Positions 25,585-64,000 of a stretch of DNA of 64,000 bases are shown here, in pieces. Both the position numbers and the translations under genes were made by a program. The stretch lies in assembly GCF_024502345.1 (NCBI RefSeq), contig NZ_JALDNN010000003.1. The stretch is one strand, 5' to 3'. The notes beneath the pieces are model-generated. The model searched no databases. It was not told the DNA's origin and was given only the letters and a program-made list of their open reading frames with translations. How positions within the stretch are numbered: the first letter of the stretch is position 1; every line of letters begins with the position of its first letter. Source of the DNA: Escherichia coli. GTDB lineage: Bacteria; Pseudomonadota; Gammaproteobacteria; Enterobacterales; Enterobacteriaceae.

Positions 25585-25670
25585 TTTATTAATTCAAAAT
25601 CCGTCATTATTATTTACCCCCATTTTTCGCCCCTAACTTATGGGGCGAGTATATTTTAAAAAACTTTCTT

Positions 25671-25706
25671 TCAGGTTATTAGCCAGCAAACTAGAACTGG
25701 TAGAAT
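25671..25706 (+). promoter_or_regulatory. putative promoter of the TTATTAG family (TCAGGTTATTAGCCAGC, TTAGCC-N16-TAGAAT)
   Basis: Conserved motif with a good -10 hexamer, 28 nt upstream of the 25734 ATG. Confidence 0.55.
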
Positions 25707-25733
25707 TAATTCATCAGAGAAAAGGGGACTATC

Positions 25734-26510
25734 ATGGCTAAATTAATTTCGACGCGTGAACTGGCAACAATTATTACTGCATTACTGGTAAAACCAGAAT
25801 TACTGGGCGAGCTGGATTCCCCAGAAAAACATCGCGCCCTGATGGAAGATCTGGGGCGTGTTGTGGCAGAGCATTGTGGCGGTAATGTCACTGAAATCGC
25901 ACTACCGGAGACCGATGGTACGGCTGCTGAAGGCGCGTTGCAGAATGGCCAGCCCGTCCGCTATCTGGAAACCAAAGAAAGCTCTCCGTATCTCATCGTA
26001 CACCCTGACGCCTCACTGCCGTCGGTGACGCAAAACGTCTGGATGCACGCTGATCATGATGGCTGGGAAGAGCATTTCAACGGAGAGACCGATGCCCTGA
26101 CTCCAGAGATGAGCGAGCAGTTCCGCCAGCAGGTTTATGCACTGCTGACGCCGGAATCCCATACCACCTCTTCAGAAATGAGACTGACTTTGCAGGACTG
26201 GCAACTGGGTGAAGCCGAGATCCCAGAAGAAGACTGTCAGCCCTACCAGGTGAAGGTGTTAGCAGAAAATAAAAACGTTCAGTGCGAAGTGACGAATGAA
26301 ACCGGCACCACGTGTTTCGGCCTCATTTTGGAGATCGACCGTGGTGTACCGACGCTGCACATTGATACGGGCAGTGATTCACTGCTGCACATTCACGCGG
26401 CACATGACGGCCTGGTTCTGACACCGGATGCACCGAGCCACAGATTTGAAGATGCTCCTGTAGATCGCTTTTCTTATAACAGCCCGTCCCTGTTGGTGCC
26501 TGGGGTGTAA
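25734..26510 (+). CDS. hypothetical protein, 258 aa, tandem paralog B
   Basis: See 24808-25584. GGGGA RBS. Confidence 0.7.
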   Translation: MAKLISTRELATIITALLVKPELLGELDSPEKHRALMEDLGRVVAEHCGGNVTEIALPETDGTAAEGALQNGQPVRYLETKESSPYLIVHPDASLPSVTQNVWMHADHDGWEEHFNGETDALTPEMSEQFRQQVYALLTPESHTTSSEMRLTLQDWQLGEAEIPEEDCQPYQVKVLAENKNVQCEVTNETGTTCFGLILEIDRGVPTLHIDTGSDSLLHIHAAHDGLVLTPDAPSHRFEDAPVDRFSYNSPSLLVPGV

Positions 26511-26574
26511 CCAGGCAAACTGCCCAGCGGTATTTTGGCCCCGGGTAAAATTATTCAGAACAGGAGTCAGGCAG

Positions 26575-26697
26575 ATGGGCGATGTTGCCACACTACCACC
26601 GAAAATTAACGATGGCGTACTTCGACGCTGGAATGCTCGCGATAAAGCGGATAAAGAGGCGCTGGCCGACTATGGCGTTAGCGTGAAGGAGGAGTGA
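26575..26697 (+). CDS. possible small protein, 40 aa (below the ORF-track cutoff)
   Basis: My own translation is MGDVATLPPKINDGVLRRWNARDKADKEALADYGVSVKEE. CAGGAG RBS. Its 3' end carries the AAGGAGGAG RBS of the next gene. Confidence 0.35.
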   Translation: MGDVATLPPKINDGVLRRWNARDKADKEALADYGVSVKEE

Positions 26698-26698
26698 A

Positions 26699-27040
26699 TT
26701 GCGCGAATTACTTGGAATGGCAGGTGCAGAACATCAAGCCTCCGTAATGTATCAAACGTTCGGACACCTCGACGCGAAGCTAGGCGAAAAGCATAAAGGT
26801 CACTTCGTTTTTATCAACGGCCAGCACGGCGATCTGTGCGTTGTGCATAGTGAATTTTCATCCTTTGACGAAGGTCCAGGCTATTTCAGTGACCGTGCCG
26901 ACTTCATCTGGGAATTAGTTAAAAACGACGGCCCATGCTCTAAGGTCGGGATTTACCGATTTGACGGCGAATACGCGCTTCCTAAGCGCCGGAATGGGAG
27001 AAGATTTTCAGGAAGCGTAACGTGCCTGCAAGCATTCTAA
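26699..27040 (+). CDS. hypothetical protein, 113 aa
   Basis: TTG start 5 nt after AAGGAGGAG. Confidence 0.5.
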   Translation: MRELLGMAGAEHQASVMYQTFGHLDAKLGEKHKGHFVFINGQHGDLCVVHSEFSSFDEGPGYFSDRADFIWELVKNDGPCSKVGIYRFDGEYALPKRRNGRRFSGSVTCLQAF

Positions 27041-27455: not shown

Positions 27456-27635
27456 ATGAAGGGTAAAAATATCGTGGCTCGTGTCGTGCGGGAAGCGGCC
27501 TATAAGTGGGAAACTCGCCACCAATTGCAGCAGGCGTACAATTCAGCGAGTGACGTGGGAAAAGTTCCCAGACATTCCGGTTCCGCATCTGATTTACGCC
27601 AGACGCTGTCATTTTTAATTCTTTGTAGGGCATGA
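27456..27635 (+). CDS. possible small protein, 59 aa (below the ORF-track cutoff)
   Basis: My own translation is MKGKNIVARVVREAAYKWETRHQLQQAYNSASDVGKVPRHSGSASDLRQTLSFLILCRA. GGAG lies upstream. Its TGA overlaps the next ATG (ATGA). Confidence 0.4.
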   Translation: MKGKNIVARVVREAAYKWETRHQLQQAYNSASDVGKVPRHSGSASDLRQTLSFLILCRA

Positions 27636-28336
27636 CGATGAAAAACACAGTAATACCGACGGTGACTGAAAACGAGATGGGAGAGGTGATCACCCGCCAC
27701 TCGGCTTACGGACTGGTATCAGTAAGCCGCACGTCCACGACGGGACAGCGCCTTTATGCCTCCGACCTCAGTCATAAAGAGGTAGTCACGATGACCTTCA
27801 GTGAATCAGAGCAGATTGAACGCGACGGTGTGATCCGTCATCGACTGGCGGAAGGCCGACGCCGCTCACCGCTCCTGCAAGTCAGTCTGTCTCCGGCGCA
27901 GTGGGCCACGATGATCACATCGTTCGGAATGAGTGACGGCGTGCCGTGTACCATTAACAGCCTGATTCGCGGCGATTATGAGCGGCAGCCGGAGATTGGC
28001 TATATTGAGTCGACACGCGAACGATACGAACGGCAGATCCGGGAAGCCGCTGAGCGTGAAATGGCGAAATTGCATGAAAAGCTGGAAGTGCTGCGTTTGC
28101 TGGCGGTAAAAGGCAAGGCTGGAAAGCGTGAGCTTGACGAAGCCTATCAGTCGCTGTTAAGCGTAATCAATAACTTGCCGGTCAATCTGGCCTTCACCAA
28201 CCAACTCATTCAGGAATCCATGGTGAATATCGTCTCACACGGCAAGGCCGAACTCGAAGCCACCGCCATGGGCGTAGCCGCTCGTCTGGGTATGAAAGAA
28301 ATGAGCAGCCTTGCCTCGCTGGAAGAGAAGAAGTAA
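27632..28336 (+). CDS. hypothetical protein with a coiled-coil-like C-terminal half, 234 aa
   Basis: Long ORF, last gene of the plus-strand string. Confidence 0.6.
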   Translation: MTMKNTVIPTVTENEMGEVITRHSAYGLVSVSRTSTTGQRLYASDLSHKEVVTMTFSESEQIERDGVIRHRLAEGRRRSPLLQVSLSPAQWATMITSFGMSDGVPCTINSLIRGDYERQPEIGYIESTRERYERQIREAAEREMAKLHEKLEVLRLLAVKGKAGKRELDEAYQSLLSVINNLPVNLAFTNQLIQESMVNIVSHGKAELEATAMGVAARLGMKEMSSLASLEEKK

Positions 28337-33179: not shown

Positions 33180-33381
33180 TGTAAGGGTTGAAGTGTGCTT
33201 CTGATGTTTTTAGAACGGATCGGAATTTACTCACATTTTGATCGTGATGATTCAATACGTGACAGAGCATAGTTATCAACAGGATAGAATAATAATAAAG
33301 ATCAATAGAGGATCAATAGCAGATCAAAAAGGAATAACGATCCTCGCAGCCCAGTGATAGCGGGCCTCTCAGCGGATCAGC

Positions 33382-33484
33382 ATCCACTGTACAGGGGGAG
33401 AAATACACTATGTCGGGTAATCCATCCACTGTACCGGGCGCATAATCCACTATACCGGGTAGATTCGATACACTATAGCGGGTA
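33382..33484. repeat. four iteron-like repeats (ATCCACTRTACCGGG) upstream of rep
   Basis: Copies begin at about 33382, 33424, 33445 and 33466. They are the inverse orientation of the downstream iterons. Confidence 0.75.
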
Positions 33485-33520: not shown

Positions 33521-34402
33521 ATGTCCAGTAATAACAACAAGTTATCTCTCGTCATTGAAGAGTCCCTAAAAGATTCAGGGGAAGTTATACAACTCTTTCC
33601 CACATTAAAACAGACCATTCAACCGAAAGTTTTACTCCGCCTAGGTGTGTTTGTGCCGACTTTGAAATCTACGGACAAGGGGGGGAGGAAGAGCCATCAT
33701 ATCGATGCCACTGAGCCGCTATCAAGGTTATCTATTGTAGAGGGTGAAGGTTACAGCCAGATCCAAATCTACGGGCCGCGTCTCGATATGGATACCGATT
33801 TCAAATCATGGTGTGGGATCGTTTATGCGTTGTCTAACCGGCCGCTTGATTCAGAAGGTCAGCTGGAGCTGAATTTTCCGGAGTTTGCAAAATTTTGTGG
33901 GTTTGATACCAAGCGCATTGATAAACAACTGAAAGAGCGCTTTGATGCTTCGCTGACGCGTATAGCCCGGACCAACATTTCATTTATTAAGAAAATACCC
34001 GGTACAGATGATCAGATAACGATAAACATGCACCTGGTGGAATCGACGTATTACGACAGTTCCACGGGAAAAATCATCATCAAGCCAAATTCGAAGCTCA
34101 ATACGCTGTATCGCGTCGACGGTAAAACCCGACTCTACCTGAAGACATTGCAAAAACTGGCCCGTAAGGAGTCCGCACAGGCCCTGTACCTGTATCTGGC
34201 TGAGCTGCCGAGCACCTTTTACCGCATCGGATTCGATCGGCTTCGTGGACGACTCCAACTGTCATCACACCTCGGTAACCAGAATGCCACGGTTAAAAAG
34301 GCGCTGGGCCAGCTTAAAGAGATCGGTTTTCTGGAATACTCCATAGACAAAGAAAACGGCGATTACGTACTGAATATTCTAAAGAGAAACATGAAGCCAT
34401 GA
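33521..34402 (+). CDS. iteron-type replication initiator (RepHI1-type), 293 aa
   Basis: Homologous to the second initiator at 47182-48057 (LLRLGVFVPT / LLRLSVFTPV; DFKSWCGIVYA / DFKCWLGCIMA; ESAQALYLYL / EAAQSLYIYF) and flanked by iterons. I cannot tell from sequence alone whether it is RepHI1A or RepHI1B. Confidence 0.85.
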   Translation: MSSNNNKLSLVIEESLKDSGEVIQLFPTLKQTIQPKVLLRLGVFVPTLKSTDKGGRKSHHIDATEPLSRLSIVEGEGYSQIQIYGPRLDMDTDFKSWCGIVYALSNRPLDSEGQLELNFPEFAKFCGFDTKRIDKQLKERFDASLTRIARTNISFIKKIPGTDDQITINMHLVESTYYDSSTGKIIIKPNSKLNTLYRVDGKTRLYLKTLQKLARKESAQALYLYLAELPSTFYRIGFDRLRGRLQLSSHLGNQNATVKKALGQLKEIGFLEYSIDKENGDYVLNILKRNMKP

Positions 34403-39246: not shown

Positions 39247-40923
39247 TTAAAAGCGTTCTGCATACAGAACGCGGACGGAGACGGCAGTGTTGTCAAACTC
39301 ATTATCGAAGGTATCCATCCACTCGGTCCTGAACCCCTCGCCCAGCAGGTTATCGATCCCCTGAAGGGACAGAGGCAGGACGGCAGCTAAACGCCCGCCG
39401 GGAACCAGATGAGACGCAGCGGCCAGCAGATGCAGCTTAGCCCGGTTGTCAGCAAAAGGAGGGTTCATCACCACGCAATCAAATTTCTGAATCTGATTCG
39501 CCGCCGACCAGGCCAGAAAATCGGCTTCCGTGGTCTCGTAACCTTTAGCCCGGGAGACCAGACAATTCAGTGTATCCAGTTCGATGCCGGTTACGTTGAC
39601 ACTTTTCGGGAAACATTGAAGCAAATCCCCGTGCCCAATATTGGGCTCCAGCAGCCGTTCCCCCTCCCCGGCCGCAATAATGGATGCGACGTATTCACTG
39701 AGTCGCGCCGACGACGGATAAAACTGGTGGGATTTAATATCAGGCATGGCGCCCATATGTCCGATGAAGCGCATCACTTCGGTCGGGTCATAATCAAACG
39801 TCACATGGTAGCTTGTCACTCGGGCACCGAGAAATCGCAGAACATCCGCGTTCACCTGCCGCGTTTTATCAGCGTTCTCACCGGCATAGCCGAGCGATGT
39901 CCAGCTGGACCATTCCTTTTCATTCTGGGTAAAATCCAGCTCTGCAAGCTGCATCCGTGAATGAAAATCGATGCAGCGTTTCAGTGCCGGGAACTCCTGC
40001 AACGTCGCTTTGGTATGGGCCACGCGTTCAGCAGGCAGAGCCAGAGGGACGATGGCAGCAAGAATGTTGTTAAGCCGTTCGGCGATATCAGGATGCACAT
40101 CAATGTGCATCGATCCGTTTTTGTAGACCCGAAAACGAATACTGTTGCCATCCAGGCTGATCCAGTTTCTGAATCCAACATGACCAACCATATTCTCAAC
40201 CATTTTTTTCGTGTCATAGACCGGTTTAACTGTTTCGCCCCGGAAATAAGAACAGATCACCCGCAACTCCGAAAGTGGCATGAGGCCGGATTCTTTAAAC
40301 TCAACCTTCAGTTTTACCCATTTGTCTTTCACGCCTTCACATACGCCGGAGGTGATCATGCGAGTAGAGAAGCCAAATGCTTTATTGGTTTTGTGTTGAC
40401 GGCTTAATGACTGAAAGACGGCATAGACACGATCTTTAATGAACTGATGCCGGTCATTGAGCAACGCGACAACCGTGGTAACAACAGCATCGAGTGTAAA
40501 ATCAGGGATCTCCTGAGGAGGAAGGTGGTAACGGTCAGCAGTAAACTGCTTATCCCATTCTTTCTTCTTTTCGTCAGACATCACAGACAGTACATCGGTC
40601 AGGGCCATGACCCTCTTCCAGTATTCTGAACGCAGCGCGTTTTCTGCGTAGCTGGCATCCGCTTCTGAAATGAGATGATTGTATCCGGAGAGGTATGAAT
40701 AGAGCTTCTGATTCCCGCATTTCAGGAACTGAGCGGACATGGACCTCAGTAAGCTAAGCTCATCGTTATATGATTCGACCTGCCTGTTAATGACATCGAG
40801 CTCTTCCCGCATTTCGGGCAGGAAGTTATCGTCGTTAATAAGGAGGCCAGTATGAGGCATATAAGCAACCAGAGAACTCCCAGGGGCACCCATTGGCAGG
40901 GAATCAGATTCAACAGCAGACAT
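39247..40923 (-). CDS. N6-adenine DNA methyltransferase with a long N-terminal domain (DUF4942-like architecture), about 558 aa
   Basis: The C-terminal region has an AdoMet motif I-like LEPNIGHGD and catalytic VMNPPF. The start is set at the ATG 9 nt after AAGGA; the track ORF starts at 41001. Confidence 0.75.
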   Translation of the reverse strand: MSAVESDSLPMGAPGSSLVAYMPHTGLLINDDNFLPEMREELDVINRQVESYNDELSLLRSMSAQFLKCGNQKLYSYLSGYNHLISEADASYAENALRSEYWKRVMALTDVLSVMSDEKKKEWDKQFTADRYHLPPQEIPDFTLDAVVTTVVALLNDRHQFIKDRVYAVFQSLSRQHKTNKAFGFSTRMITSGVCEGVKDKWVKLKVEFKESGLMPLSELRVICSYFRGETVKPVYDTKKMVENMVGHVGFRNWISLDGNSIRFRVYKNGSMHIDVHPDIAERLNNILAAIVPLALPAERVAHTKATLQEFPALKRCIDFHSRMQLAELDFTQNEKEWSSWTSLGYAGENADKTRQVNADVLRFLGARVTSYHVTFDYDPTEVMRFIGHMGAMPDIKSHQFYPSSARLSEYVASIIAAGEGERLLEPNIGHGDLLQCFPKSVNVTGIELDTLNCLVSRAKGYETTEADFLAWSAANQIQKFDCVVMNPPFADNRAKLHLLAAASHLVPGGRLAAVLPLSLQGIDNLLGEGFRTEWMDTFDNEFDNTAVSVRVLYAERF

Positions 40924-47044: not shown

Positions 47045-47130
47045 AAAAAGCATTTGATTGAATAAGAAAAGCATTTACTTGAATTGAAAAGGCATTTAGT
47101 TTAATGCGAGAAAAGCATTTGCACGAATAA
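47045..47130. repeat. four closely spaced iterons (AAAAGCATTTR) in the rep promoter region
   Basis: aaaagcatttgattgaat / aaaagcatttacttgaat / aaaaggcatttagtttaat / aaaagcatttgcacgaat, with a period of about 22 bp. Confidence 0.75.
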
Positions 47131-47181: not shown

Positions 47182-48057
47182 ATGAGTGATAACAATGAGG
47201 TAACACATCCTTTTGATGTGACCAACACGGAGACAGGGAAGACTTATCAACTGAGTCCAAACTCTTCGAAATCGGTCCAACCCATTGCTTTACTGCGCTT
47301 AAGTGTTTTTACCCCGGTGGGAACTAAAGAGAAGCGATACAGAAATTTTGAGGTTGACGCTTCTGATGAGTTGTCGAGCATGGAGCTGGCCCGTTCAGAA
47401 GGATACGATGACATTCGGATCACTGGTCTTAAGCTTTCGATGTCAACCGATTTTAAGTGTTGGCTCGGTTGCATAATGGCGTTCAGCAAATATGGTTTCG
47501 CTTCCGATAAAATCACATTGTCATTCAATGAGTTTGCAAAAATGTGTGGTATCAGTTCTACAAACATAAACAAGCGAACTCGCTCACGATTTCAGGAGGC
47601 GCTAGCAAACCTAGCTTCCGTTGTGATTTCTTTCCGTGATTCAAAAACTGAACGTTTTACTGTCACGCACCTTGTGCAGAAAGCAGTGATTGATCCTAAG
47701 AAGGACACCGTAGAGTTGGTGGGCGATCCCTCAATGTGGGAGCTTTACCGGTATGATCATAAAACCTTACTTAGTTTGCAGGTGCTTTCGGTTCTCGCTA
47801 AAAAAGAGGCAGCACAAAGCCTGTACATATATTTTGAGGCGATGCCTGCCGGTACGTTATTCGTAAGCATGAAGCGTTTGCGTGAGCGACTTCTGTTGAC
47901 GACTCCTGTACGAACTCAAAACCAGATCATCAGGAAGGCGATGCTGGAGTTAAAATCAATAGGATATCTTGAATATCAAGAGGTTAAGAAAGGTAGAGAT
48001 ATCCAGTTCCAGATTTTTAAAAGAAGTCCAAAACTTGCTCTGGCAAAACACAGTTGA
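47182..48057 (+). CDS. iteron-type replication initiator (RepHI1-type), 291 aa
   Basis: Homolog of 33521-34402, flanked by its own distinct iterons. Confidence 0.85.
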   Translation: MSDNNEVTHPFDVTNTETGKTYQLSPNSSKSVQPIALLRLSVFTPVGTKEKRYRNFEVDASDELSSMELARSEGYDDIRITGLKLSMSTDFKCWLGCIMAFSKYGFASDKITLSFNEFAKMCGISSTNINKRTRSRFQEALANLASVVISFRDSKTERFTVTHLVQKAVIDPKKDTVELVGDPSMWELYRYDHKTLLSLQVLSVLAKKEAAQSLYIYFEAMPAGTLFVSMKRLRERLLLTTPVRTQNQIIRKAMLELKSIGYLEYQEVKKGRDIQFQIFKRSPKLALAKHS

Positions 48058-48530: not shown

Positions 48531-49141
48531 AAAAGCATTTGTTTCAATGGAGAGCAAAAAAGTGCCTTTTGTATAAAAGCATTTGCTCCAATGGCGGCAG
48601 AAAAGTGCCTTTTGTATAAAAGCATTTGCTTCAATGGCGGCAGAAAAGTGCCTTTTGAAAAAAGCATTTGTATGAATGCTGCGGTGAAAGTTGCTTTTGG
48701 TCGGGAAGCAGGGCTCGCAAGGGACAGTGTAAGGTGCCTTTTTTCGAAAAGCATTTGCACGAATAGGAGAATGCAAGTTGCCTTTGGTCGGAAAGCATTT
48801 GAATGAATGGGGAAGTGTAAGTTGCCTTTGGTTGGAAAGCATTTGCATGAATGAGTCCCTGATAGGTGTCTTTGTTTGAAAAGCATTTGCATGAATGGAT
48901 TCAGAAGAAGTGACTTTTACGATAAGCATTTGAATGAATGGGCACCGCAGACGCGCATTCCCCAATCAGCATTTGAATGAATGAGCTCCGCAGTTTTGCT
49001 TTCATCGAACAGCATTCGTATGAATGTGCTCCGCAGAGGTGGCTTTCATTGAAAAGCATTTGTATGAATGGGGGATACATAATCCTTGTGGGTGAAAAGC
49101 ACTCGCATCAATGGGGGAAAAGTGACTTTTGGAATGTCATC
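48531..49141. repeat. origin iteron array, about 14 units with a period of 41-44 bp (AAAAGCATTTGYATGAATGG plus an AAAAGTGCCTTTT-type spacer)
   Basis: Unit starts near 48531, 48575, 48618, 48659, 48747, 48791, 48835, 48879, 48923, 48967, 49010, 49052 and 49095, plus one degenerate unit near 48703. The array ends in GAAAAGTGACTTTTG at 49127-49141. Inverted single iterons lie at 48111-48130 and about 48212-48229. Confidence 0.8.
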
Positions 49142-50932: not shown

Positions 50933-52165
50933 ATGACTTCAAAAAAGGTTTTTCACTGCACCGCGATTACAGCAGTGATTTTGCTGGCAACTTCGAATGT
51001 GGTATTTGCTGAAGACTATCAGTTACCGGCGACAGTAAATAATCCGGTAGTTATGCCTGTCGGGGCCGATGAATTTCAGAACGGTGTGAAAAATGCGATA
51101 ATTAAAGACACTGGCACTACGACTGAGACCGTACAAGCAACAAAACCGACAACTGCTCTGCCAAGTCTTTCACCTGCAAGCAGTGCTTCTCCCGCAGTCA
51201 ATGAAATAACCGGGGCGTTGTCAAATAACCCTACTCTAGCTGGTTACCAGCAACAGGTTAAATCAGGAAATTTTGATAGTTACGGAAGACCAGCAGGGAA
51301 AGAACCTCAACAAAATGCACAAAGTACCGGGTCCCCTTCAAAGGCAGATGAACTTTATGTTGAAGCACGTAATCGCTATAAAGAAGTACAACGAGTAAAC
51401 GTTCCGCCTGGTGGCAATATTGTACTCCCGGTTTCTCGGGGGCTGCAAAACAGAATTTCGACTTCATTTAAAAATGCATCTGTAAGTACTTCAACGCCAG
51501 CTGATGAAGCCAGTATTTTCGTTAATGGCGGGGATGTTTTTATTTCAACAAATACAGATAAGCCTATAGGAATTATGCTTTCAGAAGATTCAGTTCCTGA
51601 ATCTACTTATAACCTGACACTGGTTCCACTGGATGTACCAGGGGCGATGATTTCAGTAACAACTTCTTTGAGCCCGACAATGCAGGCAAAACGAGAAACT
51701 TCTCTTGATAAACAAAATTATGATGAGATGCTGGCACGCTCACAATCAGAAGAGTTGACTCCTTCAGACCCTCGGCAGGATGACCATAAACAGCGGATCA
51801 TTGATTTGTTGACTCCGGTTGCACTGGGTGAGGTTCCTTCTGGTTTCAGTTTACAAGAAGACCGCTTGTCACGCATACCAAGCTCAGAGCAGTCCCCATG
51901 TAATTTCAATATGTACGCCAAGTTAGGTCAAAGACTGGTGGGATCTCGGGAATTGATAGATGTCGTTCTTGTTAAGAATGATAAGCCTTACGGACAGGTA
52001 GTGGCTGATCAGCAATGTATAACTGAAGGCGTGGTTGCAAGCGCTCTATTCGATAAAGCATTCCTTCAGCCCGGGGAAGAGACCGAACTTTATATTGTGC
52101 GGGATAAATTATTTAAAGAGCGTCAGACTCGTGTTACTACGCGCCCAAGCCTGATTAAAAGATAA
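50933..52165 (+). CDS. trhK: TraK-like periplasmic/outer-membrane ring protein, 410 aa
   Basis: Signal peptide, and position between the traE-like and traB-like genes. Confidence 0.7.
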   Translation: MTSKKVFHCTAITAVILLATSNVVFAEDYQLPATVNNPVVMPVGADEFQNGVKNAIIKDTGTTTETVQATKPTTALPSLSPASSASPAVNEITGALSNNPTLAGYQQQVKSGNFDSYGRPAGKEPQQNAQSTGSPSKADELYVEARNRYKEVQRVNVPPGGNIVLPVSRGLQNRISTSFKNASVSTSTPADEASIFVNGGDVFISTNTDKPIGIMLSEDSVPESTYNLTLVPLDVPGAMISVTTSLSPTMQAKRETSLDKQNYDEMLARSQSEELTPSDPRQDDHKQRIIDLLTPVALGEVPSGFSLQEDRLSRIPSSEQSPCNFNMYAKLGQRLVGSRELIDVVLVKNDKPYGQVVADQQCITEGVVASALFDKAFLQPGEETELYIVRDKLFKERQTRVTTRPSLIKR

Positions 52166-52166
52166 T

Positions 52167-52607
52167 ATGAGAAAAGCTACTTTTCTTACAGTGATCTCGT
52201 TTGGTTTAGTTGTCTTTTTGGGTACCAGTTATTACTACCAAACTAAGTATATCCCGAAAGGCACCGTGAATATATTTCCTGATGTCCACCGACAGGGTGA
52301 GATCGTTGATGATGCCTTTGAGAAAAGCACGATTGTTATAAGCGACCCAACGCTTGCGGATAAATTTGTTGGAAGTTCAACCGAGTCTGTCGGTCGGCAT
52401 GAAGTTAATGTAATAAAAGAATTGGGCACGCAAAATAATGGTTCGAAATTTGTTCATGATGAGTCTGATAAATCAGGTTTGACGGTTGGAGATAAATGGC
52501 CTAGGGCTGGTGAACCTTATATCGTGCCTCAGATGACAGAATACGAGCGGAATTTGAAAGTTAAGCGATTCCAGCAACCAAAGAATGGAGTTAATAATGG
52601 ACATTAA
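52167..52607 (+). CDS. exported protein of unknown function in the tra operon, 146 aa
   Basis: N-terminal signal/TM segment MRKATFLTVISFGLVVFLG. Tightly packed in the operon. Confidence 0.6.
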   Translation: MRKATFLTVISFGLVVFLGTSYYYQTKYIPKGTVNIFPDVHRQGEIVDDAFEKSTIVISDPTLADKFVGSSTESVGRHEVNVIKELGTQNNGSKFVHDESDKSGLTVGDKWPRAGEPYIVPQMTEYERNLKVKRFQQPKNGVNNGH

Positions 52608-53963: not shown

Positions 53964-54476
53964 ATGGAAAATAACAACGACAATGAATCACCAAAAAAGA
54001 GTGAGTCTGCTGATAGCTTAAATATCGACGCGGCTAAACCGGTTGGGGGTATACGTACTACCAAAAAAGTAACTTTAGAGATCGATATCGAGAAAACTCT
54101 TAAGTATCTGATGGTCGCAGGCCTGGCAGTTCTTATCGTGATCTATGGATACAAGGGTGGACGTTTTGTATATGACAACTTCAAAGCAATGTCGCAACCG
54201 GCCTACCAGATTGCCGTGCTGGATATGCAAACTTTAAGAAAAGTATTTAATAAGCAAAATCCGGTGTTGGATTCGCAGCAATCCAAAACTAACTTTGAAA
54301 ATTATTTTAAGGCATTAATGAAGGTTTACCGTGAACGTGGCTATTTGGTTATTGATGCATCCTTGGCAGTAACTATTCCAGAGAATGTTGAAATAGTCTC
54401 TTATATCGACCTTGGTGGAAGTTTTGGTGAGGTACAATCTCTTCCAGGCGAACCTAAAGAAAGTGAGATTCGATAA
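53964..54476 (+). CDS. membrane-anchored tra-operon protein of unknown function, 170 aa
   Basis: Single TM segment (YLMVAGLAVLIVIYGY). Confidence 0.6.
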   Translation: MENNNDNESPKKSESADSLNIDAAKPVGGIRTTKKVTLEIDIEKTLKYLMVAGLAVLIVIYGYKGGRFVYDNFKAMSQPAYQIAVLDMQTLRKVFNKQNPVLDSQQSKTNFENYFKALMKVYRERGYLVIDASLAVTIPENVEIVSYIDLGGSFGEVQSLPGEPKESEIR

Positions 54477-55334
54477 TTGAAAAAGTTACTTTTGTCTCTG
54501 CTGATTTCCATTACCTCAGCGTGCCCGCCGCTTACTCTGGCTGTTGAAAATGTATTAAACAATCGTGATGCCGCTGCGTTAATGGAAAAGGCAAAAGAAG
54601 GTGGAGTATCAACGAAACCTTTAGACGGTGTATTGGCGAAAATGAAAAGCTATAAGCCTAAAGATGCTATTTACATCCCTACTGGCGGTCTTTATTTGTT
54701 CCAGGATGAACGTTCTCAGTTGATGGCGGTGACCACTGACGGACGGTATACAATCACGGGGGGGAGCGTCATGGACATTCTTCAGAGAAAGTCAGTGTTA
54801 TCAGTAGAGGATATACGAAAGTCGTTCTTTATTAATTTAGACGACGCCCCTTTCCCTCTTGAAACTGTGGCATCGATACCTTTAGGAAACCCAAAACTCA
54901 AACGTCAAGCGGCAATATTTATTACGCTTGATTGTGACGGTTGTCAGGATTTAATAAAGAAATTCTATGATGAACGCGAAAAGTATCGGGTCGATATAGT
55001 TTTAATCCCCTCCCCCGGCGAGCCAAAGCAGGAATTGCGTCAATTATGGTGCAGTAAAGAAAAAGGCAAAGTGAATGATCTTGATATCTTGCGTTGGCTT
55101 ATGGGTAATAAGGCCGATATAGAAAAACGACTCCTGACGAAAGAAGAGGCAGAAGCATGTCCGGCTGAACCGTTAGTCGCGTCATTAATGCTGGCTGGCA
55201 TTTATAAATTACAGGGAGTCCCCTCAGTTGTAAGACAGGATGGACTCGCTGGTAATGGCATACCGAAAGATTTTGATTACTGGTTAAAACAAAGTGTCGA
55301 ACCCTTACTCAAAAACCCATTTGATACTAATTAA
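54477..55334 (+). CDS. periplasmic thioredoxin-fold DsbC-like thiol:disulfide interchange protein, 285 aa
   Basis: Signal peptide plus a CxxC active site in FITLDCDGCQDL. F-like T4SS loci commonly carry such a gene. Confidence 0.7.
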   Translation: MKKLLLSLLISITSACPPLTLAVENVLNNRDAAALMEKAKEGGVSTKPLDGVLAKMKSYKPKDAIYIPTGGLYLFQDERSQLMAVTTDGRYTITGGSVMDILQRKSVLSVEDIRKSFFINLDDAPFPLETVASIPLGNPKLKRQAAIFITLDCDGCQDLIKKFYDEREKYRVDIVLIPSPGEPKQELRQLWCSKEKGKVNDLDILRWLMGNKADIEKRLLTKEEAEACPAEPLVASLMLAGIYKLQGVPSVVRQDGLAGNGIPKDFDYWLKQSVEPLLKNPFDTN

Positions 55335-56302: not shown

Positions 56303-58984
56303 ATGAGATCAGCTAACGTCTATAATAAAGAATTAAGCCGTCATCAGTTAGGTGGATTTATTCCCGTGTATGATCAGATTCCGGGTACACATTATTTTCT
56401 ACTTGACGGAAACCGACTCGGTTTTATGTTTATCTGTAGTCCGTCGCCCGGTGTCTTTGATAATCAGCAGGATGTGTTAACTGAATTATTTAAAATGGAC
56501 TTCCCAGCTGACACCATCTGTCAGACCTCATTAACTGCGCTGCCAGACTTGATCTTGCACTTAAGTGCCTGGTCTGCCGTTCGTGGTGGTCGAATGGAAG
56601 GTCATGATAAGCTTAAGGGGGATTTACTCACTGCATATCAACTGGATTATTATGACCGAAGCCTGAATGAACCTTTGAAGCCGGACCACGATAAATTGAT
56701 GCTTCGAGATTTTCAGGTCTGGATTTCCTTTTCAATTCCATTGAAGTCAGCACTTCCTTCTGAAATAGAAAAGACTCGCATTGATGCGCTTTACTCTGAC
56801 TTAATCAGTAAGTTGAATACAGTAGGCCTTTTCCCACACAAAGTTGGTGCTGAAAATTGGCTTTATTGCATGGATAAGTTATTGCATCCGGGAAAAACAT
56901 CGCGTTGGTCTGAAGGTCATGTTGAAGCTAGCACCATGAGACGCCTAAACGAGCAGATCAATGTACCGGGTCGAAAATATACAGTGACAGAGAATCATTT
57001 CTCATCTACAACGCAGAGCAATGATATTTCTGAGCATCGTTATTTCAAACAATTATCAGTAGTGAAGTTTCCAGAATTTGTAAACTTTGGCTGCATGTAT
57101 GAACTTGTAGTTAATTGGTTGAATGGACGTAAAACGATCTTTAGCCCTTTCATGATAACCCAGACTGTCCATTTCGCCGATCCTTTAAAATTATCAAGAG
57201 AAAACGTCAGATATAAGGCAATTACTAACAAACAAGCCAGTATTCCAACAGTTTTGACGTTTTGTCCAAGATTAAAGGATATGGATAATGATTACATGAC
57301 GATAACACGCGAACTGGAAGATGGGGCTCGCCTCCTACACAGTTATCTGACATTTACTGTAATGGGGAATTCAGCAGTTGATGTTCAGTCTGCCGCAGAC
57401 CAGTTAAAATCATTTTATCTGGAAAGTCGTGTTAATGTTGCTGATGACTCGTACATAGTATTTCCCTCATTTGTTTCAAGCCTGCCGATGTGTAATGACC
57501 CAAAGACAATACTAGAACTGGATCGTTTTGAGGTCGTGAGTAATACTGGTGCTGCGCACATGACCCCCATATTTGGTCCTTGGAAAGGTAATACGGACAG
57601 ACCCGTACTTAACCTTGTCTCACGAGAAGGACAGCTGTTGGGGCTGGATATCTTCAAGACTTCTGCCAGCTATAACATGGTCGTTGGTGCAACGTCTGGT
57701 GCTGGTAAATCATTCTGGGTCGCATACATCATTAATAATTATCTAGGCGCAGGTCCGCGTTCTAATAATCTGATCCATTATCGAGATACTTTTGAGGGAT
57801 TCAAAAACAATTCTTATGATGCATTTGACCCTGATGGAGCCCAGATTTTCGTAGTTGATGTCGGACGCTCATACCAAGGTATTTCGGAACAATATACTAA
57901 TAGTCAGTTTATAGACTTTGGGAAAAAGCCTGATTTTACGCTAAATCCATTCGCATTTTTGACTGATGTGACTGTTGGAGAGCGTGTTTTTGATGAAGCA
58001 CCTGTCTTTAATGACGATTCAAATAATCATGATGATGATAAGGATAAAGTAGCCCAGACCATTATGGTTCTAAACCAGTTAAAAATAATGGCATCTGAAA
58101 AAGGAAATATTGACGATTTTCAACAATCGGTCATGCTGCAACTGATTAGTGAAGAATATAACGAATCACGCAAAGTTGGACGTACAGGCTCTATTACTGG
58201 ATTTGCGCGACGCTGTTCTAACCATGAAGATAAGCGTATTAAAGATATCGGTGACCAGTTGGGGCAATGGTGTGAAGGAGGGATTTATGGGAATCGCTTT
58301 ACAGAAAATCTCCCGCCAATAAATTTTGATAGCCGGTTTATTGTTCTGGAACTTGAAGAATTGAAGGGGACCCCACACCTTCAGACTGTCGTTCTGATGT
58401 CGATTATTCAGGCCGCTCAGCATGCAATGTTTATCAAGAAAGACGGACGCCGCCGGTTGTTCATACTTGATGAGGCATGGGAGTATATCCGTCCGGACAA
58501 TGCTTCAGGTTCCAGTAATCATTCAAATCAATTTTTCTCCTCTTTCCTTGAGGCCGCTTGGCGCCGATTCAGGAAAACGAACTGTGCCGGTATTTGTATT
58601 ACTCAATCCTTTGAAGATTACTTCACCTCATCGGTTGGTCGCGCACTAACGGCTAACTCGCCGTGGAAGATCATCATGAAGCAGGAAAAGGAAAGTATTG
58701 AAGCCATGAAGGTGAACAACTACTTCTCCACAACTGATGCGGAATATGAGCGTATGAAAAATATTCGAACGGTAAAGCGTGCATTTTCCGAGATGCTCGT
58801 ACGATTCGAAAATTTCCAGGAGATATGTCGCCTCTATGTAGATAGAAAAATGGAGCTTTGCTTTACGACTGACAGCACCGATCGTGGAAAACTATGGGAA
58901 ATCCAAAGCCGACTTGATTGCTCTTACGGCGAAGCAATTGAGATTCTGTACGAACAGGAAGTTGCGAGCAAATCAGCTGCCTGA
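56303..58984 (+). CDS. trhC: TraC/VirB4-like conjugation ATPase, 893 aa
   Basis: Walker A motif GATSGAGKS and a Walker B-like RRLFILDEAW. Size and position are typical of TraC. Confidence 0.9.
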   Translation: MRSANVYNKELSRHQLGGFIPVYDQIPGTHYFLLDGNRLGFMFICSPSPGVFDNQQDVLTELFKMDFPADTICQTSLTALPDLILHLSAWSAVRGGRMEGHDKLKGDLLTAYQLDYYDRSLNEPLKPDHDKLMLRDFQVWISFSIPLKSALPSEIEKTRIDALYSDLISKLNTVGLFPHKVGAENWLYCMDKLLHPGKTSRWSEGHVEASTMRRLNEQINVPGRKYTVTENHFSSTTQSNDISEHRYFKQLSVVKFPEFVNFGCMYELVVNWLNGRKTIFSPFMITQTVHFADPLKLSRENVRYKAITNKQASIPTVLTFCPRLKDMDNDYMTITRELEDGARLLHSYLTFTVMGNSAVDVQSAADQLKSFYLESRVNVADDSYIVFPSFVSSLPMCNDPKTILELDRFEVVSNTGAAHMTPIFGPWKGNTDRPVLNLVSREGQLLGLDIFKTSASYNMVVGATSGAGKSFWVAYIINNYLGAGPRSNNLIHYRDTFEGFKNNSYDAFDPDGAQIFVVDVGRSYQGISEQYTNSQFIDFGKKPDFTLNPFAFLTDVTVGERVFDEAPVFNDDSNNHDDDKDKVAQTIMVLNQLKIMASEKGNIDDFQQSVMLQLISEEYNESRKVGRTGSITGFARRCSNHEDKRIKDIGDQLGQWCEGGIYGNRFTENLPPINFDSRFIVLELEELKGTPHLQTVVLMSIIQAAQHAMFIKKDGRRRLFILDEAWEYIRPDNASGSSNHSNQFFSSFLEAAWRRFRKTNCAGICITQSFEDYFTSSVGRALTANSPWKIIMKQEKESIEAMKVNNYFSTTDAEYERMKNIRTVKRAFSEMLVRFENFQEICRLYVDRKMELCFTTDSTDRGKLWEIQSRLDCSYGEAIEILYEQEVASKSAA

Positions 58985-59602
58985 CGTTTTAAGTTACTGG
59001 TTACCTCATTTTGTTTTGACTGAGGTATCCAGTACGTCTTTGAAGTAAATAGTTTTTAGCTGTCATTGCCTGCCCTCCCCCGAAATAATAGCCCGGGTTA
59101 AGAATATCTAGCTCGGATTAAGTCCTCTCAAACCGTCATACATGAAATTCGATTCCTTTTTCATTCTTCTTTTGAAGGTGAATGAATATGATGAAATTTA
59201 CTCCAGAATTATTCTCCCTACCAGGCTTTTGCTGTGAAGTTAATCAGATCAGGTATTATGTTTTGGGTACAAGAACCAACCAAGGTGGGTGTGGTTTTTG
59301 TATGGCAGATGCAAACATCGTTTTTACGGTTATAATAAATAACCATTATATAGATGAATTTATCGTTTTTTCTTTTAAGTCTTTGAAATAATTGGATCTA
59401 ATATCTAGATGATGGTTGTATAAACTATACGTTAATTAGATTTGAGAATGCAACTGTGATGCGATGCGTAGATATTATTAAGGTGAGTGGTTTGTTAAAA
59501 CAACCAAAAAAACAAGTAAGATCAGGTCTTATCTCCATAATAACTTAACCATCTAACTTTCTGGTTGGAATAAGAAACCATTTTAAGCTTATTCAATAAC
59601 GA

Positions 59603-59950
59603 AATTTAACCACTTGAATCGACTGACCATGGAGGAAAGCTGGTCGTGTCCCGTGGCATTTAACCCCCTTAATCGCCAGACCATGGAGGAAAGCTGGTTG
59701 CTTACCGTGGCATTTAACCCCCTTAATCGCCAGACCATGGAGGAAAGCTGGTCGTGTCCCGTGGTATTTAACTCCCTTAATCGCCAGACCATGGGGGGAA
59801 GCTGGTCGGGTACTGTGGCATTTAACCCCTTAATCGGCAGACCATGGAGGGATTATTGCCGGGTACCAGGCCATTTAACCACTTACTCGTCTGTACACGA
59901 TGGGATGCTGGTCGCGTAGCGCGGAATTGCTCCCCTATTCACCAGTTCTT
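59603..59950. repeat. tandem repeat block 1, about 6.4 units of 53-54 bp
   Basis: Units start near 59603, 59657, 59711, 59765, 59819 and 59872. The core is CATTTAACCCCCTTAATCGCCAGACCATGG. The last two units are degenerate. Confidence 0.9.
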
Positions 59951-60563
59951 TGCTAAAGGAAAGCCAGTCTAAAAGGTTTTCCGGCCAAAACTTTTTTTGT
60001 TTCACTACAGTTATTCGTCCTTCCGTTCAGCGTGATAAAATATACAAAAACGTAGAGGTAACCCATAAAAGTAAAAGAGCTTATAGACCAGCTTAAAAGG
60101 CTCGACCCGGATGCGTATGTAGTAGTTGCTGGATTTGAAAACCAGTGTACTGGACACGTGGCTGAAGCAGATACCATTAAAGAATGCATGACAATTCCTG
60201 TACGAGCGGACAGCATGTCAGGTGACCGTACGCTTGCAAAAGATGGATCACCTTCAGTCTAGTTGAGGGGGGGAGATGACTACCGCACGGAATACTTCGT
60301 TAGTGCAATAGACGACACGGATGAATTGGCCTAATTATACGAATTGCCAAAAAACTCTCTTATTGTCAATTGGGGGTATGGGCAATTCATATTGATTGCC
60401 AAATATTTTTTGGGTATTCGGGATGTCCTAACAACAGGATTTGCCGAATACCCTATTTTTTTGCCAAATATTTCGTCATTCTAAGTCGAGATCCAGGCCG
60501 AATATCTTTTAATCTAATCCACTCAATAGACAGATTCTGGTGGGATACTTATTGTGTACCGTC

Positions 60564-62525
60564 GTATTAAACCCACTTAACCGCTAGGGCGTCACGTTGT
60601 CCTGTCTGCAAGCCGAGGCAATTTCCCCTTTAGCCAATGACCACGGTGCCTGCTGGTCGGGTACCGTGGGATTTAACCCCCATAATCGCCAGACCATGGA
60701 GGCAAGCTGGTCGGGTACCGTGGCATTTAACCCCCTTAATCGCCAGGCCATGGGGAGGCTGGTCGCGTAGCGTGGCATTAAACCCTTTAATCGCCAGGAC
60801 ATGGGGTCATGCTGGTCAGGTACCGTGGTATTTAACTCCCTTATTCGCCAGACCATGGGGAATGCTGGTCGCGTATCCTGGCATTTAACCCCCTTAATCG
60901 CCAGAGCATGGCGGGAAGCTGGTCGGGTACCGTGGGATTTAACCCCCTTAATCGCCAGACCATGGAGGAAAGCTGGGCGTGTCCCATGGAATTTAACCCC
61001 CTTAATCGCCAGACCATGGAGGAAAGCTGGTCGTGTCCCGTGGCATTTAACCCCCTTAATCGCCAGGCCATGGGGAGGCTGGTCGCGTAGCGTGGCATTA
61101 AACCCTTTAATCGCCAGGACATGGGGTCATGCTGGTCAGGTACCGTGGTATTTAACTCCCTTATTCGCCAGACCATGGGGAATGCTGGTCGCGTATCCTG
61201 GCATTTAACCCCCTTAATCGCCAGAGCATGGCGGGAAGCTGGTCGGGTACCGTGGGATTTAACCCCCTTAATCGCCAGACCATGGAGGAAAGCTGGGCGT
61301 GTCCCATGGAATTTAACCCCCTTAATCGCCAGACCATGGAGGAAAGCTGGTCGTGTCCCGTGGCATTTAACCCCCTTAATCGCCAGGCCATGGGGAGGCT
61401 GGTCGCGTAGCGTGGCATTAAACCCTTTAATCGCCAGGACATGGGGTCATGCTGGTCAGGTACCGTGGTATTTAACTCCCTTATTCGCCAGACCATGGGG
61501 AATGCTGGTCGCGTATCCTGGCATTTAACCCCCTTAATCGCCAGAGCATGGCGGGAAGCTGGTCGGGTACCGTGGGATTTAACCCCCTTAATCGCCAGAC
61601 CATGGAGGAAAGCTGGGCGTGTCCCATGGAATTTAACCCCCTTAATCGCCAGACCATGGAGGAAAGCTGGTCGTGTCCCGTGGCATTTAACCCCCTTAAT
61701 CGCCAGGCCATGGGGAGGCTGGTCGCGTAGCGTGGCATTAAACCCTTTAATCGCCAGGACATGGGGTCATGCTGGTCAGGTACCGTGGTATTTAACTCCC
61801 TTATTCGCCAGACCATGGGGAATGCTGGTCGCGTATCCTGGCATTTAACCCCCTTAATCGCCAGAGCATGGCGGGAAGCTGGTCGGGTACCGTGGCATTT
61901 AACCCCCTTAATCGCCAGGCCATGGGGTGGCTGGTCGCGTAGCGTGGCATTTAACCCCCTTAATCGCCAGGCTATGGGGAAGCTGGTCTCGTAGCGTGGC
62001 ATTTAACCCCCTTAATCGCCAGGCTATGGGGAAGCAGGTCGCGTAGTGTGGCATTTAACCCCCTTAATCGCCAGGCCATGGAGAAGCTGTTCGCGTAGCG
62101 TGGCATTTAACCTCCTTAATCGCCAGGCTATGGGGAAGCTGGTCTCGTAGCGTGGCATTTAACCCCCTTAATCGCCAGGCTATGGGGAAGCAGGTCGCGT
62201 AGTGTGGCATTTAACCCCCTTAATCGGCAGGCCATGGAGAAGCTGGTCGCGTAGCGTGGCATTTAACCCCCTTAATCGCCAGGCCATGGGGAAGCTGGTC
62301 GCTTAGCGTGGCATTTAACCCCCTTAATCGCCAGAGCATGGCGGGAAGCTGGTCGGGTACCGTGGCATTTAACCCCCTTAATCGCCAGGCCATGGAGGAA
62401 TGCTGGTCTCGTACCATGGCATTTAACCCCCTTAATCGCCAGGCTATGGGGTAATGCTGGTCGGGTACCGTGGGATTTACCCCCCTTATTGCCACATCTA
62501 TGGAGTGATCCTGCTATGTCGGAAG
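60564..62525. repeat. tandem repeat block 2, about 37 units of 52-54 bp (candidate partition/incompatibility repeat field upstream of parA)
   Basis: The same unit family as block 1, head to tail without spacers, with degenerate units at both edges. Confidence 0.9.
60724..61897. repeat. higher-order repeat: a 320-bp block of six subunits (52+53+53+54+54+54 bp), 3 full identical copies plus a 4-subunit partial copy
   Basis: Block starts at 60724, 61044, 61364 and 61684. Sequence lines and the ORF-track translations (135-aa and 111-aa ORFs spaced exactly 320 bp apart) are identical between copies. Confidence 0.9.
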
Positions 62526-62659
62526 ATTGGTATTGTTGATACTTAAGAGGCTTTTGGAAGACTTCAATGAACTGCCAATTGAAATTCAATAATGCAGATA
62601 TTCCAAAATCTAAGAAAAGAATACAGAACGTTAGCGTAATAATAGAATTAAGGTTACTA

Positions 62660-62716
62660 TTAAACGCATAACGCTAAAGTATACGCATTATGCGTAAAGT
62701 TTACGTATATACGTTT
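62660..62716. promoter_or_regulatory. palindromes in the parA promoter region (candidate ParA autoregulation operator)
   Basis: TACGCATTATGCGTA (62682-62696) and ACGTATATACGT (62703-62714), with related ACGCATAACG upstream, 40-90 bp before the parA ATG. Confidence 0.45.
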
Positions 62717-62751
62717 AATTTCACTATTTAGGTAAAAGGGATCGGAAGAGA

Positions 62752-64000
62752 ATGAATCTAATTGATAAGATCGCCCTTGTCGGTCAACGCATGAAGAGCG
62801 AGCAGATCTCTCTGAAAGAGTCATTATTGGTCTCTTCGAGGGTTTCGGTATCGGATGATAGTGTAGACGGTGTTGATCGCCTAATCTATAACCACTGCTT
62901 GAATAAAAAAAATCTGTCAGATTTTTTTGGTAAATCTCGCGTAACTTTTAACAAAATCTTAGCGGATCTTGAAGAAAAAGAACTGGTTGGTGCTCCTATC
63001 TACCAGAACAAAAACCATCTCTATACCCGCTGGGATGTCCAGAAAATAATGGATGCTCTGAACTATCCTCGATATAGCGACTACTACTGTAGCCGTACAA
63101 TCGTAACGCAGAACCATAAGGGTGGTACGGGGAAGAGTACAACTTCAGGCGTTCTTGCAGTTGCGGCAGCACTTGATTTGCATCTAAACGCGCGAATACT
63201 GTTGATCGAATGGGACCCACAAGGGTCTATTGGAAGCGGGATGATCCAGAGCGTAGCGGAAGATGATGTTTTCCTGACTGCTATTGACGCCATCTTAGGG
63301 GTTTACGAAGAAGACTCAGATTACAGAAAATATCTTGATTTAGGGTACTCGGAAGAACAAATTATTGAAGGTATGCCTTTTTCAACACACCTTCCGAATC
63401 TTGATGTTATTACCGCATTCCCTACAGATGCACGTTTCAAAGATAAATACTGGCAGTGTTCCAGAGAAGAACGAACTGAGTTATTACTACGTTTTAAAGA
63501 GGTAATCCTGCCGGTCTTGAAGAGCAAGTACGACCTGATCATTATCGATACTCCACCAGAAGATTCGCCAATCACATGGGCAGCGGATGAAGCTGCTGAT
63601 GGCATTTTGGTTGCCGTTTCACCTCGTGAGTATGATTATGCCTCAACAACTGATTTCATGTTGACGCTCAGTGAGCGATTCAAACAATCGCCGAGCAAGG
63701 GCGAAAATCTAAGCTGGTTCAAAGTGTTGGCAGTGAATGTCGACGATAAGAGTCCCTATGAAAAGATTGTCCTGGATAAACTGGTAAGGACAGTGCAGGA
63801 ACTCTTTATGTCTGCAAATATCAAAAACTCAGAAGCGTTTAAAGCCGCAGCTTCTAGGGGTAGAACCGTATTGGATATTAAAAAATCAGAAGAGCTCTGC
63901 TCTCCCAAACAGCTTGATGTTGCCGAAGAATCCGTGATGGCGGTCTACCAGCAATTTATTAATGAGATTAAGAGTTTTTCAGTGAAGCAAGGGGGTAATG
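62752..64000 (+). CDS. parA: type Ia ParA partition ATPase, 3'-partial (runs off the window)
   Basis: My own translation is MNLIDKIALVGQRMK...TQNHKGGTGKSTTSGVLA (deviant Walker A)...LIIIDTPPE (Walker B). The roughly 110-aa N-terminal extension is typical of P1/F-type ParA/SopA. It is absent from the ORF track because it has no stop codon in the window. Confidence 0.9.
   Translation, partial: MNLIDKIALVGQRMKSEQISLKESLLVSSRVSVSDDSVDGVDRLIYNHCLNKKNLSDFFGKSRVTFNKILADLEEKELVGAPIYQNKNHLYTRWDVQKIMDALNYPRYSDYYCSRTIVTQNHKGGTGKSTTSGVLAVAAALDLHLNARILLIEWDPQGSIGSGMIQSVAEDDVFLTAIDAILGVYEEDSDYRKYLDLGYSEEQIIEGMPFSTHLPNLDVITAFPTDARFKDKYWQCSREERTELLLRFKEVILPVLKSKYDLIIIDTPPEDSPITWAADEAADGILVAVSPREYDYASTTDFMLTLSERFKQSPSKGENLSWFKVLAVNVDDKSPYEKIVLDKLVRTVQELFMSANIKNSEAFKAAASRGRTVLDIKKSEELCSPKQLDVAEESVMAVYQQFINEIKSFSVKQGGN

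Follow-up and report, generated by a model that had tools for sequence, protein, structure and literature searches.

The locus between trhC and parA

We analysed a tandem repeat field upstream of the partition gene parA in a 64,000-nt stretch of Escherichia coli DNA (contig NZ_JALDNN010000003.1, assembly GCF_024502345.1), hereafter the window. The window is an R27-like IncHI1 plasmid, and the region of interest comprises the end of Tra2 and the Par1/Par2 partition region of R27. In annotated relatives, trhC is followed by about 3-4 kb devoid of real genes and then by parA, parB and, at a greater distance, parM. The interval between trhC and parA holds two arrays of 52-54-bp repeat units, the short array A and the long array B, separated by unique sequence (Table 1). 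Tandem Repeats Finder (TRF) places array A at 59604-59850 with a period of 54 bp and 4.6 copies, and matches to the unit core start at 59605, 59659, 59713, 59767 and 59820. A megablast search against plasmids retrieved 293 matching records from Escherichia, Salmonella, Klebsiella and Citrobacter (284 predicted conjugative). All relatives fetched and typed are IncHI1-type conjugative plasmids.

The counterpart of the locus in R27 lies at 24-28.5 kb. R27 carries both arrays, at 25602-26744 and 27544-27846 (L017). DNA identity to R27 amounts to 99.7-100% for the flanks of array B, trhC and parA, and to 98.2% for the intergenic stretch between trhC and array A. The ParB proteins of the closest relatives are 100% identical to the R27 protein. 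The locus is the Par1 partition module of R27 (Lawley & Taylor 2003). A search of full-text literature, with a coverage that excluded the original R27 Par1 and R27 genome papers, returned no description of the array. The incC repeats needed for R27 stability belong to a RepFIA-like replicon at a different locus (PMC4853401).

Table 1. Features of the trhC-parA region, in window coordinates.
Feature	Position	Strand	Description
trhC (IncHI conjugal transfer ATPase)	56303..58984	+	893-aa open reading frame, annotated in relatives; last 984 bp 100% identical to R27; context, outside the partition locus
Array A	59599..59930	+	5 good and 1 degenerate unit of 53-54 bp; core and orientation as in array B
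Unique spacer between the arrays	59931..60559	.	about 630 bp; 99.8% identical to R27
Array B	60560..62510	+	about 37 head-to-tail units of 52-54 bp, both edges degenerate; TRF 34.6 copies of 54 bp; 35 core matches
320-bp higher-order repeat	60718..61895	+	six unit types 8-9-10-11-12-13; 3.68 copies, zero mismatch
156-bp duplication	61950..62261	+	types 16-17-18 and 19-17-20; 3 substitutions
Imperfect palindrome	62659..62719	.	61 bp, 34-94 bp upstream of the parA start; 30-nt arms, 77% complementary
parA (Par1)	62753..64000	+	runs off the window end; parB next in relatives; DNA 99.8% identical to R27 parA

Higher-order repeat structure of array B

Array B was read directly and analysed with TRF and scripts. 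TRF reports an array at 60652-62488 with periods of 54 and 320 bp, and the proportion of matches is higher at the 320-bp period (93%) than at the monomer (84%). A script comparison found the blocks at 60724-61043, 61044-61363 and 61364-61683 to be identical base for base, as a first-pass annotation made from the sequence had claimed. Self-identity at period 320 continues without mismatch over 1178 bp in total. The fourth, partial copy exists as the annotation proposed, but its first mismatch (C instead of G at 61896) shows that the end given there, 61897, was placed two bases too far.

Each 320-bp block consists of six units of 52, 53, 53, 54, 54 and 54 bp. Pairwise identity among these units is 72-94%, with 3-15 differences per pair, which agrees with the mutually different subunits first described. 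Blocks are thus 100% identical while their monomers are considerably diverged, and the number of blocks varies between relatives, as is typical of satellite-like higher-order repeats. Further downstream, a 156-bp block of three 52-bp units occurs twice (61950-62105 and 62106-62261). The two copies differ by substitutions at 61957, 62071 and 62090, matching the repeated block with few substitutions noted earlier.

The units share a short core. Searching the window for the 21-nt core TTTAACCCCCTTAATCGCCAG with at most three mismatches yielded 37 matches, all on the plus strand and all inside the two arrays, spaced 51-54 bp apart. With 0.01 matches expected, chance is excluded.

A P1-like core in the repeat units

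Each unit carries an invariant 21-bp core, TTTAAC-CCCC-TTAATCGCCAG. An alignment of 59 distinct units from 17 IncHI1 loci separates a nearly invariant core, GCATTTAACCCCCTTAATCGCCAG, from a more variable remainder. The site can be written as (A/G)TTTAAC-CCCC-TTAA[T]CGCCA-G, with 21 bp and one occurrence per 52-54-bp unit. The annotated parS site of P1 has A-boxes of the form ATTTCAC or ATTTCAA and B-boxes TCGCCA. In the right arm of this site, ATTTCAA-G-GTGAAA[T]CGCCA, A3 shares its last T with B2. The IncHI1 core, ATTTAAC-CCCC-TTAA[T]CGCCA, combines an A-box-like heptamer, an inverted half-box and a B-box identical to that of P1, in the same overlapping register as A3/B2. The core thus has the inverted A-box heptamers and the overlapping B-box TCGCCA of a P1-type parS, with a right half-box shorter than in P1.

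The partition proteins point in the same direction. ParB matches the P1 ParB family (Pfam PF08775, E = 8e-13) and the P1 ParB structure 1zx4 in PDB (E = 4e-17). In the BLASTP alignment to P1 ParB, residues 37-326 share 28% identity (E = 7e-30) and the GSRRR box is retained. ParB hence qualifies as a homologue of P1 ParB, the class of protein with a helix-turn-helix and a C-terminal dimerisation and B-box domain that is expected in type Ia systems. ParA, a Walker-type ATPase, has 417 aa and its Pfam AAA_31/CbiA match starts at residue 115, which leaves the N-terminal extension of about 100 aa typical of type Ia proteins of about 400 aa. Because ParB is a homologue of P1 ParB and the core matches the parS register, each unit would represent one simple P1-type ParB site, as judged from the sequence. 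The arrangement is also sopC-like. The repeats are direct, share one orientation and contain one inverted-repeat site each. The palindromes have the form TTAA-N5-TTAA, and AACAA-N5-TTGTT in distant lineages.

Conservation of the core and linkage to parA

The homologous ParAB pairs of other IncHI subgroups are all preceded by a large array, close to parA. In a pNDM-CIT-like plasmid (ParB 83% identical), the array comprises 10.5 units of 54 bp, again with the IncHI1 core. An IncHI2 plasmid (ParB 72%; NZ_CP041174, L019 2293-4871) has 12 copies of this core at a spacing of about 249 bp. The IncHI2 unit is much longer than that of any other lineage, and its cores are separated by about 228 bp of repeated but unrelated sequence. 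A Klebsiella IncHI1B/FIB plasmid has 29 units of 66 bp and an IncHI5-like plasmid 42 units of 67 bp, both with a ParB of 46% identity. In these two lineages, the core reads AAAACAA-CCCC(C/G)-TTGTT-CGCAG. Both palindrome arms have changed together, and the C-tract and the CGC..A box are kept.

A scan of GTDB species representatives recovered exact-core arrays in Buttiauxella, Lelliottia, Scandinavium, Pseudocitrobacter, Phytobacter and Pantoea. Wherever the fetched stretch includes a parA homologue, that gene directly follows the array, and in Buttiauxella the array goes with parA, not with trhC. Unit length is 43 bp in Buttiauxella and 54-55 bp in Pseudocitrobacter, Lelliottia, Scandinavium and Phytobacter. 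Spacers of different lineages show no sequence relationship and measure anywhere from 22 to 228 bp, whereas the 21-bp core stays the same. Helical phasing (52-54 bp corresponding to about five turns) was considered as a general rule and is ruled out by units of 43, 55, 66-67 and 249 bp in other lineages.

The Morganella morganii plasmid NZ_CP149990 (ParB 51% identical) has no array. Two single copies of AAAACAACCCCCTTGTTCGCCAA lie on either side of the operon, one 140 bp before parA and the other 170 bp after parB (L020 5093-5115 and 7671-7693). This two-site arrangement may represent the minimal form of the centromere family.

The array might alternatively have no centromere role for Par1 and be a selfish satellite, or a platform for another protein such as a nucleoid-associated protein or a transfer regulator, that happens to adjoin parA. 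Such a role would fit the position at the end of the Tra2 transfer operon and the tolerance of insertions and large size changes. However, the core remains invariant across lineages with completely different spacers, the array follows parA rather than trhC in Buttiauxella, and both palindrome arms change along with the divergence of ParB. Single copies of the core bracket parAB in the array-less Morganella plasmid, and the P1 B-box is shared in a system with a P1-like ParB. The invariant core, the linkage to parA, the covariation of the arms and the Morganella sites together make a ParB-binding, centromere-like role much likelier than a bystander satellite, and we consider the alternative improbable.

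The repeats could also encode repetitive proteins or a structured RNA. Open reading frames (ORFs) of 101-173 aa run through the repeats and some are annotated in relatives, e.g., WP_123894138.1. These ORFs lie on both strands, though, and with unit lengths of 52, 53 and 54 bp the frame is not kept along the array. Pfam gave no match to the ORFs and Rfam none to the region at E <= 0.1, and it is the 21-bp core rather than a reading frame that is conserved across lineages. On these grounds, coding and RNA readings are rejected as hardly credible. RefSeq lists several small hypothetical proteins (e.g., WP_123894138.1 and WP_153253763.1) that lie wholly inside arrays of relatives, at L001 7115-7420 and 8098-8529 and at L002 1615-1920, the equivalents of window 59614-59919 and of array B. 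As the unit lengths disrupt the reading frame and no family match exists, these proteins are very probably spurious gene calls.

Two further identities were rejected. Replication iterons do not fit, as the rep genes at 33521-34399 and 47182-48054 have unrelated repeats of their own and neither gene adjoins the array. A CRISPR array does not fit either, as the whole 52-54-bp unit repeats and unique spacers are absent.

History of the 320-bp block

Every unit was coded by its exact sequence, and arrays were written as strings of units. Array B of the window reads 7 [8 9 10 11 12 13]x3 [8 9 10 14] 15 16 17 18 19 17 20 21 14 22 23. In R27, p2010C_3053-1 and p81EVA-1 it reads 7 [8 28 10 11 12 13][8 29 10 14] 30 16 31 32 19 17 32 21 14 ..., and a Citrobacter plasmid has a single block (8 28 10 11 12 13). 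R27 and its two close relatives hold 1.67 copies of the block, which differ from each other in carrying unit 28 or unit 29. The window holds 3.67 copies, two more than R27 (+640 bp). All four window copies, including the terminal partial one, contain unit 9, distinguished from unit 28 by a private substitution (T>A).

Since the 320-bp block is already duplicated in R27, what is new in the window is the rise from 1.67 to 3.67 copies. The presence of unit 9 in all four copies requires that expansion was joined by homogenisation after the split from an R27-like state. Judging from the unit strings, repeated unequal exchanges would produce both the expansion and the uniformity. Contraction to a single block followed by re-expansion was also considered. 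By reasoning alone, this scenario fails if the contraction removes units 11-13, and repeated unequal exchanges or conversion are more likely. The 156-bp duplication is also present in R27, p2010C_3053-1 and p81EVA-1 and is therefore old. The first-pass annotation had proposed very recent amplification or homogenisation for both repeats. A recent event is supported for the 320-bp block (from 1.67 divergent to 3.67 identical copies) but not for the duplication shared with R27.

The annotation further attributed the expansion to unequal recombination of multi-unit blocks. Events at the level of blocks are well supported, whereas the sequence cannot tell RecA-dependent exchange from replication misalignment. 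The structure could be real and have arisen through RecA-independent misalignment, by slipped-strand or template switching in a 320-bp register, instead of unequal homologous crossing-over. In E. coli, tandem repeats of a few hundred bp are well known to rearrange independently of RecA. Both routes are expected to add or remove whole blocks cleanly and in register, as seen here, and either route explains the homogenisation of the edge copies. However, perfect homology over 320 bp is also an efficient substrate for RecA. We regard a RecA-independent origin as possible but somewhat doubtful.

Variation among related plasmids

Among the loci dissected, and with insertion sequences (ISs) set aside, array B ranges from 765 to 1939 bp, with the window at the upper end. 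Different blocks have been amplified in different lineages. A two-unit block of 106 bp (29 30) occurs in 1, 3 or 4 copies in other lineages, and pMAK1 has a three-unit block of 158 bp (31 32 33) in 4 copies. Array A varies from 3 to 19 units among relatives, and array A of the window differs from that of R27. Over the loci compared, pRHB31-C04_2 equals pRHB11-C04_2 plus a clean in-register insertion of 318 bp (3 x 106 bp). These plasmids come from the same farm study and are otherwise identical over loci of 5.2 kb, with common prefix and suffix together exceeding the length of the shorter locus. Higher-order periods exist elsewhere, with 334 bp in an IncHI5-like plasmid (90% matches versus 80% for the monomer) and 193 and 391 bp in an IncHI3-like plasmid. 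The predicted copy-number variation among related plasmids is thus evident, and block counts are clearly not identical across relatives, which the annotation had named as the outcome that would contradict it.

Several otherwise intact relatives carry ISs in or next to the arrays. IS26 lies inside array B and IS21 inside array A. An IS421 is found where array B comes closest to parA, at the edge of the array, and an ISApl1 occupies a place between trhC and array A. The insertions in relatives occupy L002 3023-3727, L005 1056-2030 and 4095-4799, L012 4159-5271 and L015 4830-6799. The arrays tolerate interruption, which is consistent with redundancy of the units.

A probable centromere-like array evolving by whole blocks

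We consider it probable that the repeats are a cis-acting, centromere-like array of the type Ia ParA/ParB system Par1, with array B as its main part, in which a 320-bp block went from 1.67 to 3.67 copies by whole-block evolution. The centromere function and the binding of ParB are what we infer from the sequence, and the exchange route and the near-neutrality of copy number are likewise inferred. The P1-like ParB encoded downstream would bind each 21-bp site, and about 40 sites in the same orientation would nucleate one large partition complex. Sites would be redundant and the number of units only weakly constrained, which would let the array evolve like satellite DNA. Misaligned pairing of similar but non-adjacent units would duplicate or delete whole blocks, either through unequal exchange between sister or dimer copies or through replication misalignment. 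Repeated rounds of such pairing would homogenise the array interior. The six-unit block, present in 1.67 copies in the R27 lineage, would have expanded and become uniform in this way.

Several observations weigh against this interpretation. The right half of the palindrome is short (TTAA/TTAAT), so that the comparison with the A-box is based on 6-7 bases. Two of the six units in the amplified block have degenerate cores, which indicates that whole blocks were copied regardless of the quality of individual sites, and some units may not be working sites. The array lies upstream of parA, whereas the centromeres of P1 and F lie downstream of parB. No record among the 293 PLSDB and 115 RefSeq complete E. 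coli matching records has more than 1.67 copies of the 320-bp block, and the perfect identity of the copies could partly stem from assembly or polishing.

The last two points raise the alternative of an artefact, in which the source plasmid has 1.67 copies as in R27 (or some other number) and the assembler inflated the count or the polisher homogenised the copies. Beyond the lack of a second 3.67-copy structure in these records, short-read polishing is known to homogenise near-identical repeats. Five metagenome contigs share the private unit-9 variant and array A of the window, so the lineage exists independently, and the variant is absent from the GTDB species representatives. These short-read contigs end inside the array or collapse there, e.g., to 7 8 9 10 14 22 23. 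The breaks and collapses fall exactly at the array, bearing out the earlier warning that short-read assemblies can collapse or inflate here. On the other hand, R27 was sequenced by the Sanger method and already has the block duplicated. Independent complete assemblies differ in-register in other blocks, including the clean 318-bp insertion. The independent metagenome contig OGNC01009366 holds at least 1.5 blocks, both with unit 9. An artefact is therefore unlikely in our assessment, and expansion of a centromere-like array remains the preferred explanation.

The centromeres of IncHI plasmids might also behave as true satellite arrays whose size is shaped by competition between co-resident or recombining plasmids. 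Block amplification would then not be neutral: an array with additional sites would bind a larger share of ParB and prevail in partition-mediated incompatibility, in a prokaryotic analogue of centromere drive. We think this speculative and quite unlikely. If true, it would account for the independent recurrence of arrays of 10-42 sites and of higher-order periods in IncHI1, IncHI2, IncHI3-like and IncHI5-like plasmids. The homologous Morganella system, with apparently two single sites, contrasts with this recurrence of large arrays.

IncHI1 plasmids are vehicles of multidrug resistance in Salmonella Typhi and E. coli. Their main stability determinant is reported to be Par1. The P1-like core pins down a probable ParB site and thus provides a concrete target for work on binding and stability. 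Changes by whole blocks between near-identical plasmids create a point of failure for short-read assembly, with lengths differing by multiples of 106, 158 or 320 bp without a functional reason. Differences in the array could be used for typing at a fine scale. Tandem repeats are well known to amplify by blocks, an ordinary process, and the result is neat rather than surprising. The locus offers a compact bacterial case of higher-order repeats under concerted evolution at a site of segregation.

Other features of the window

The spacer between the arrays contains a start-less ORF of 65 codons (60065-60262) with no Pfam match, as well as several TTGCCAAA-like motifs around 60340-60470. The imperfect palindrome upstream of parA, within which TRF detects 20-bp repeats at 62664-62709, is a candidate operator/promoter for autoregulation by type Ia ParA. 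A scan of 58.9-62.8 kb for promoters and terminators gave fewer consensus matches than shuffled sequence and is thus uninformative.

Two replication initiators are encoded elsewhere in the window. The Rep protein at 47182-48054 is 100% identical to the RepB-family protein of R27 (R27 39480-40355). It is flanked by 21-bp repeats upstream (47046-47120) and a field of 43/44-bp repeats downstream (48531-49070), which are presumably iterons. Overlapping BLAST segments suggest that the downstream field is about 86-88 bp, or two units, shorter than in R27, and that its number of units varies as well. The second initiator (33521-34399) is identical to the R27 protein at 54356-55237. Direct repeats of 21/42 bp immediately upstream (33381-33484) are probably the iterons of a second IncHI1 replicon. 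At about 36508, the window lacks the IS30 copy found at 51035-52186 in R27, and the R27 alignment jumps by about 1.2 kb.

Comparison with known systems

P1 ParABS is similar in its proteins and in the makeup of the site. Homology between the ParB proteins covers nearly their entire length and includes the C-terminal domain (PF08775, PDB 1zx4) and the GSRRR box, and ParA has the long form with an N-terminal extension. The unit core shares with P1 an A-box-like heptamer (ATTTAAC, compared to ATTTCAC/ATTTCAA), an inverted half-box and an identical TCGCCA that overlaps by one T. In P1, however, parS is a single composite site of about 83 bp downstream of parB, with a central site for integration host factor (IHF), which bends the DNA between two arms. 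IncHI1 plasmids instead have about 40 simple tandem sites upstream of parA, in one orientation and without a second arm. The half-boxes are separated by a C4-5 tract in IncHI1 and by a single base in P1. The units thus lack the two-arm arrangement, and an IHF site is not evident in them, although the IHF consensus was not searched specifically.

The sopC centromere of F likewise consists of tandem direct repeats, each with one short inverted-repeat site for a type Ia centromere-binding protein. In F, 12 nearly identical units of 43 bp are bound by SopB and lie downstream of sopB. The IncHI1 array lies upstream, is three times larger and is split by a 630-bp spacer. Its units differ by 6-28%, form higher-order blocks, and vary in total length between relatives. 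The sopC units are redundant, with one sufficient for partition. By analogy, the IncHI1 locus would work most like sopC, i.e., as a tandem array of redundant sites, here built from P1-type sites. Compared to Par1 of R27, with which it shares the locus and both arrays, the window has two extra 320-bp copies, a private unit variant and a different array A.

In its evolution, the array resembles the higher-order repeats of eukaryotic centromeric satellites such as alpha satellite, with diverged monomers in blocks that are 100% identical, degenerate edges, a varying number of blocks and a location at a site of segregation. The array spans 2 kb rather than megabases, would be specific in sequence for a ParB-type protein instead of being defined epigenetically, and does not involve meiotic drive. 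The likeness concerns how tandem arrays evolve and not a shared ancestry.

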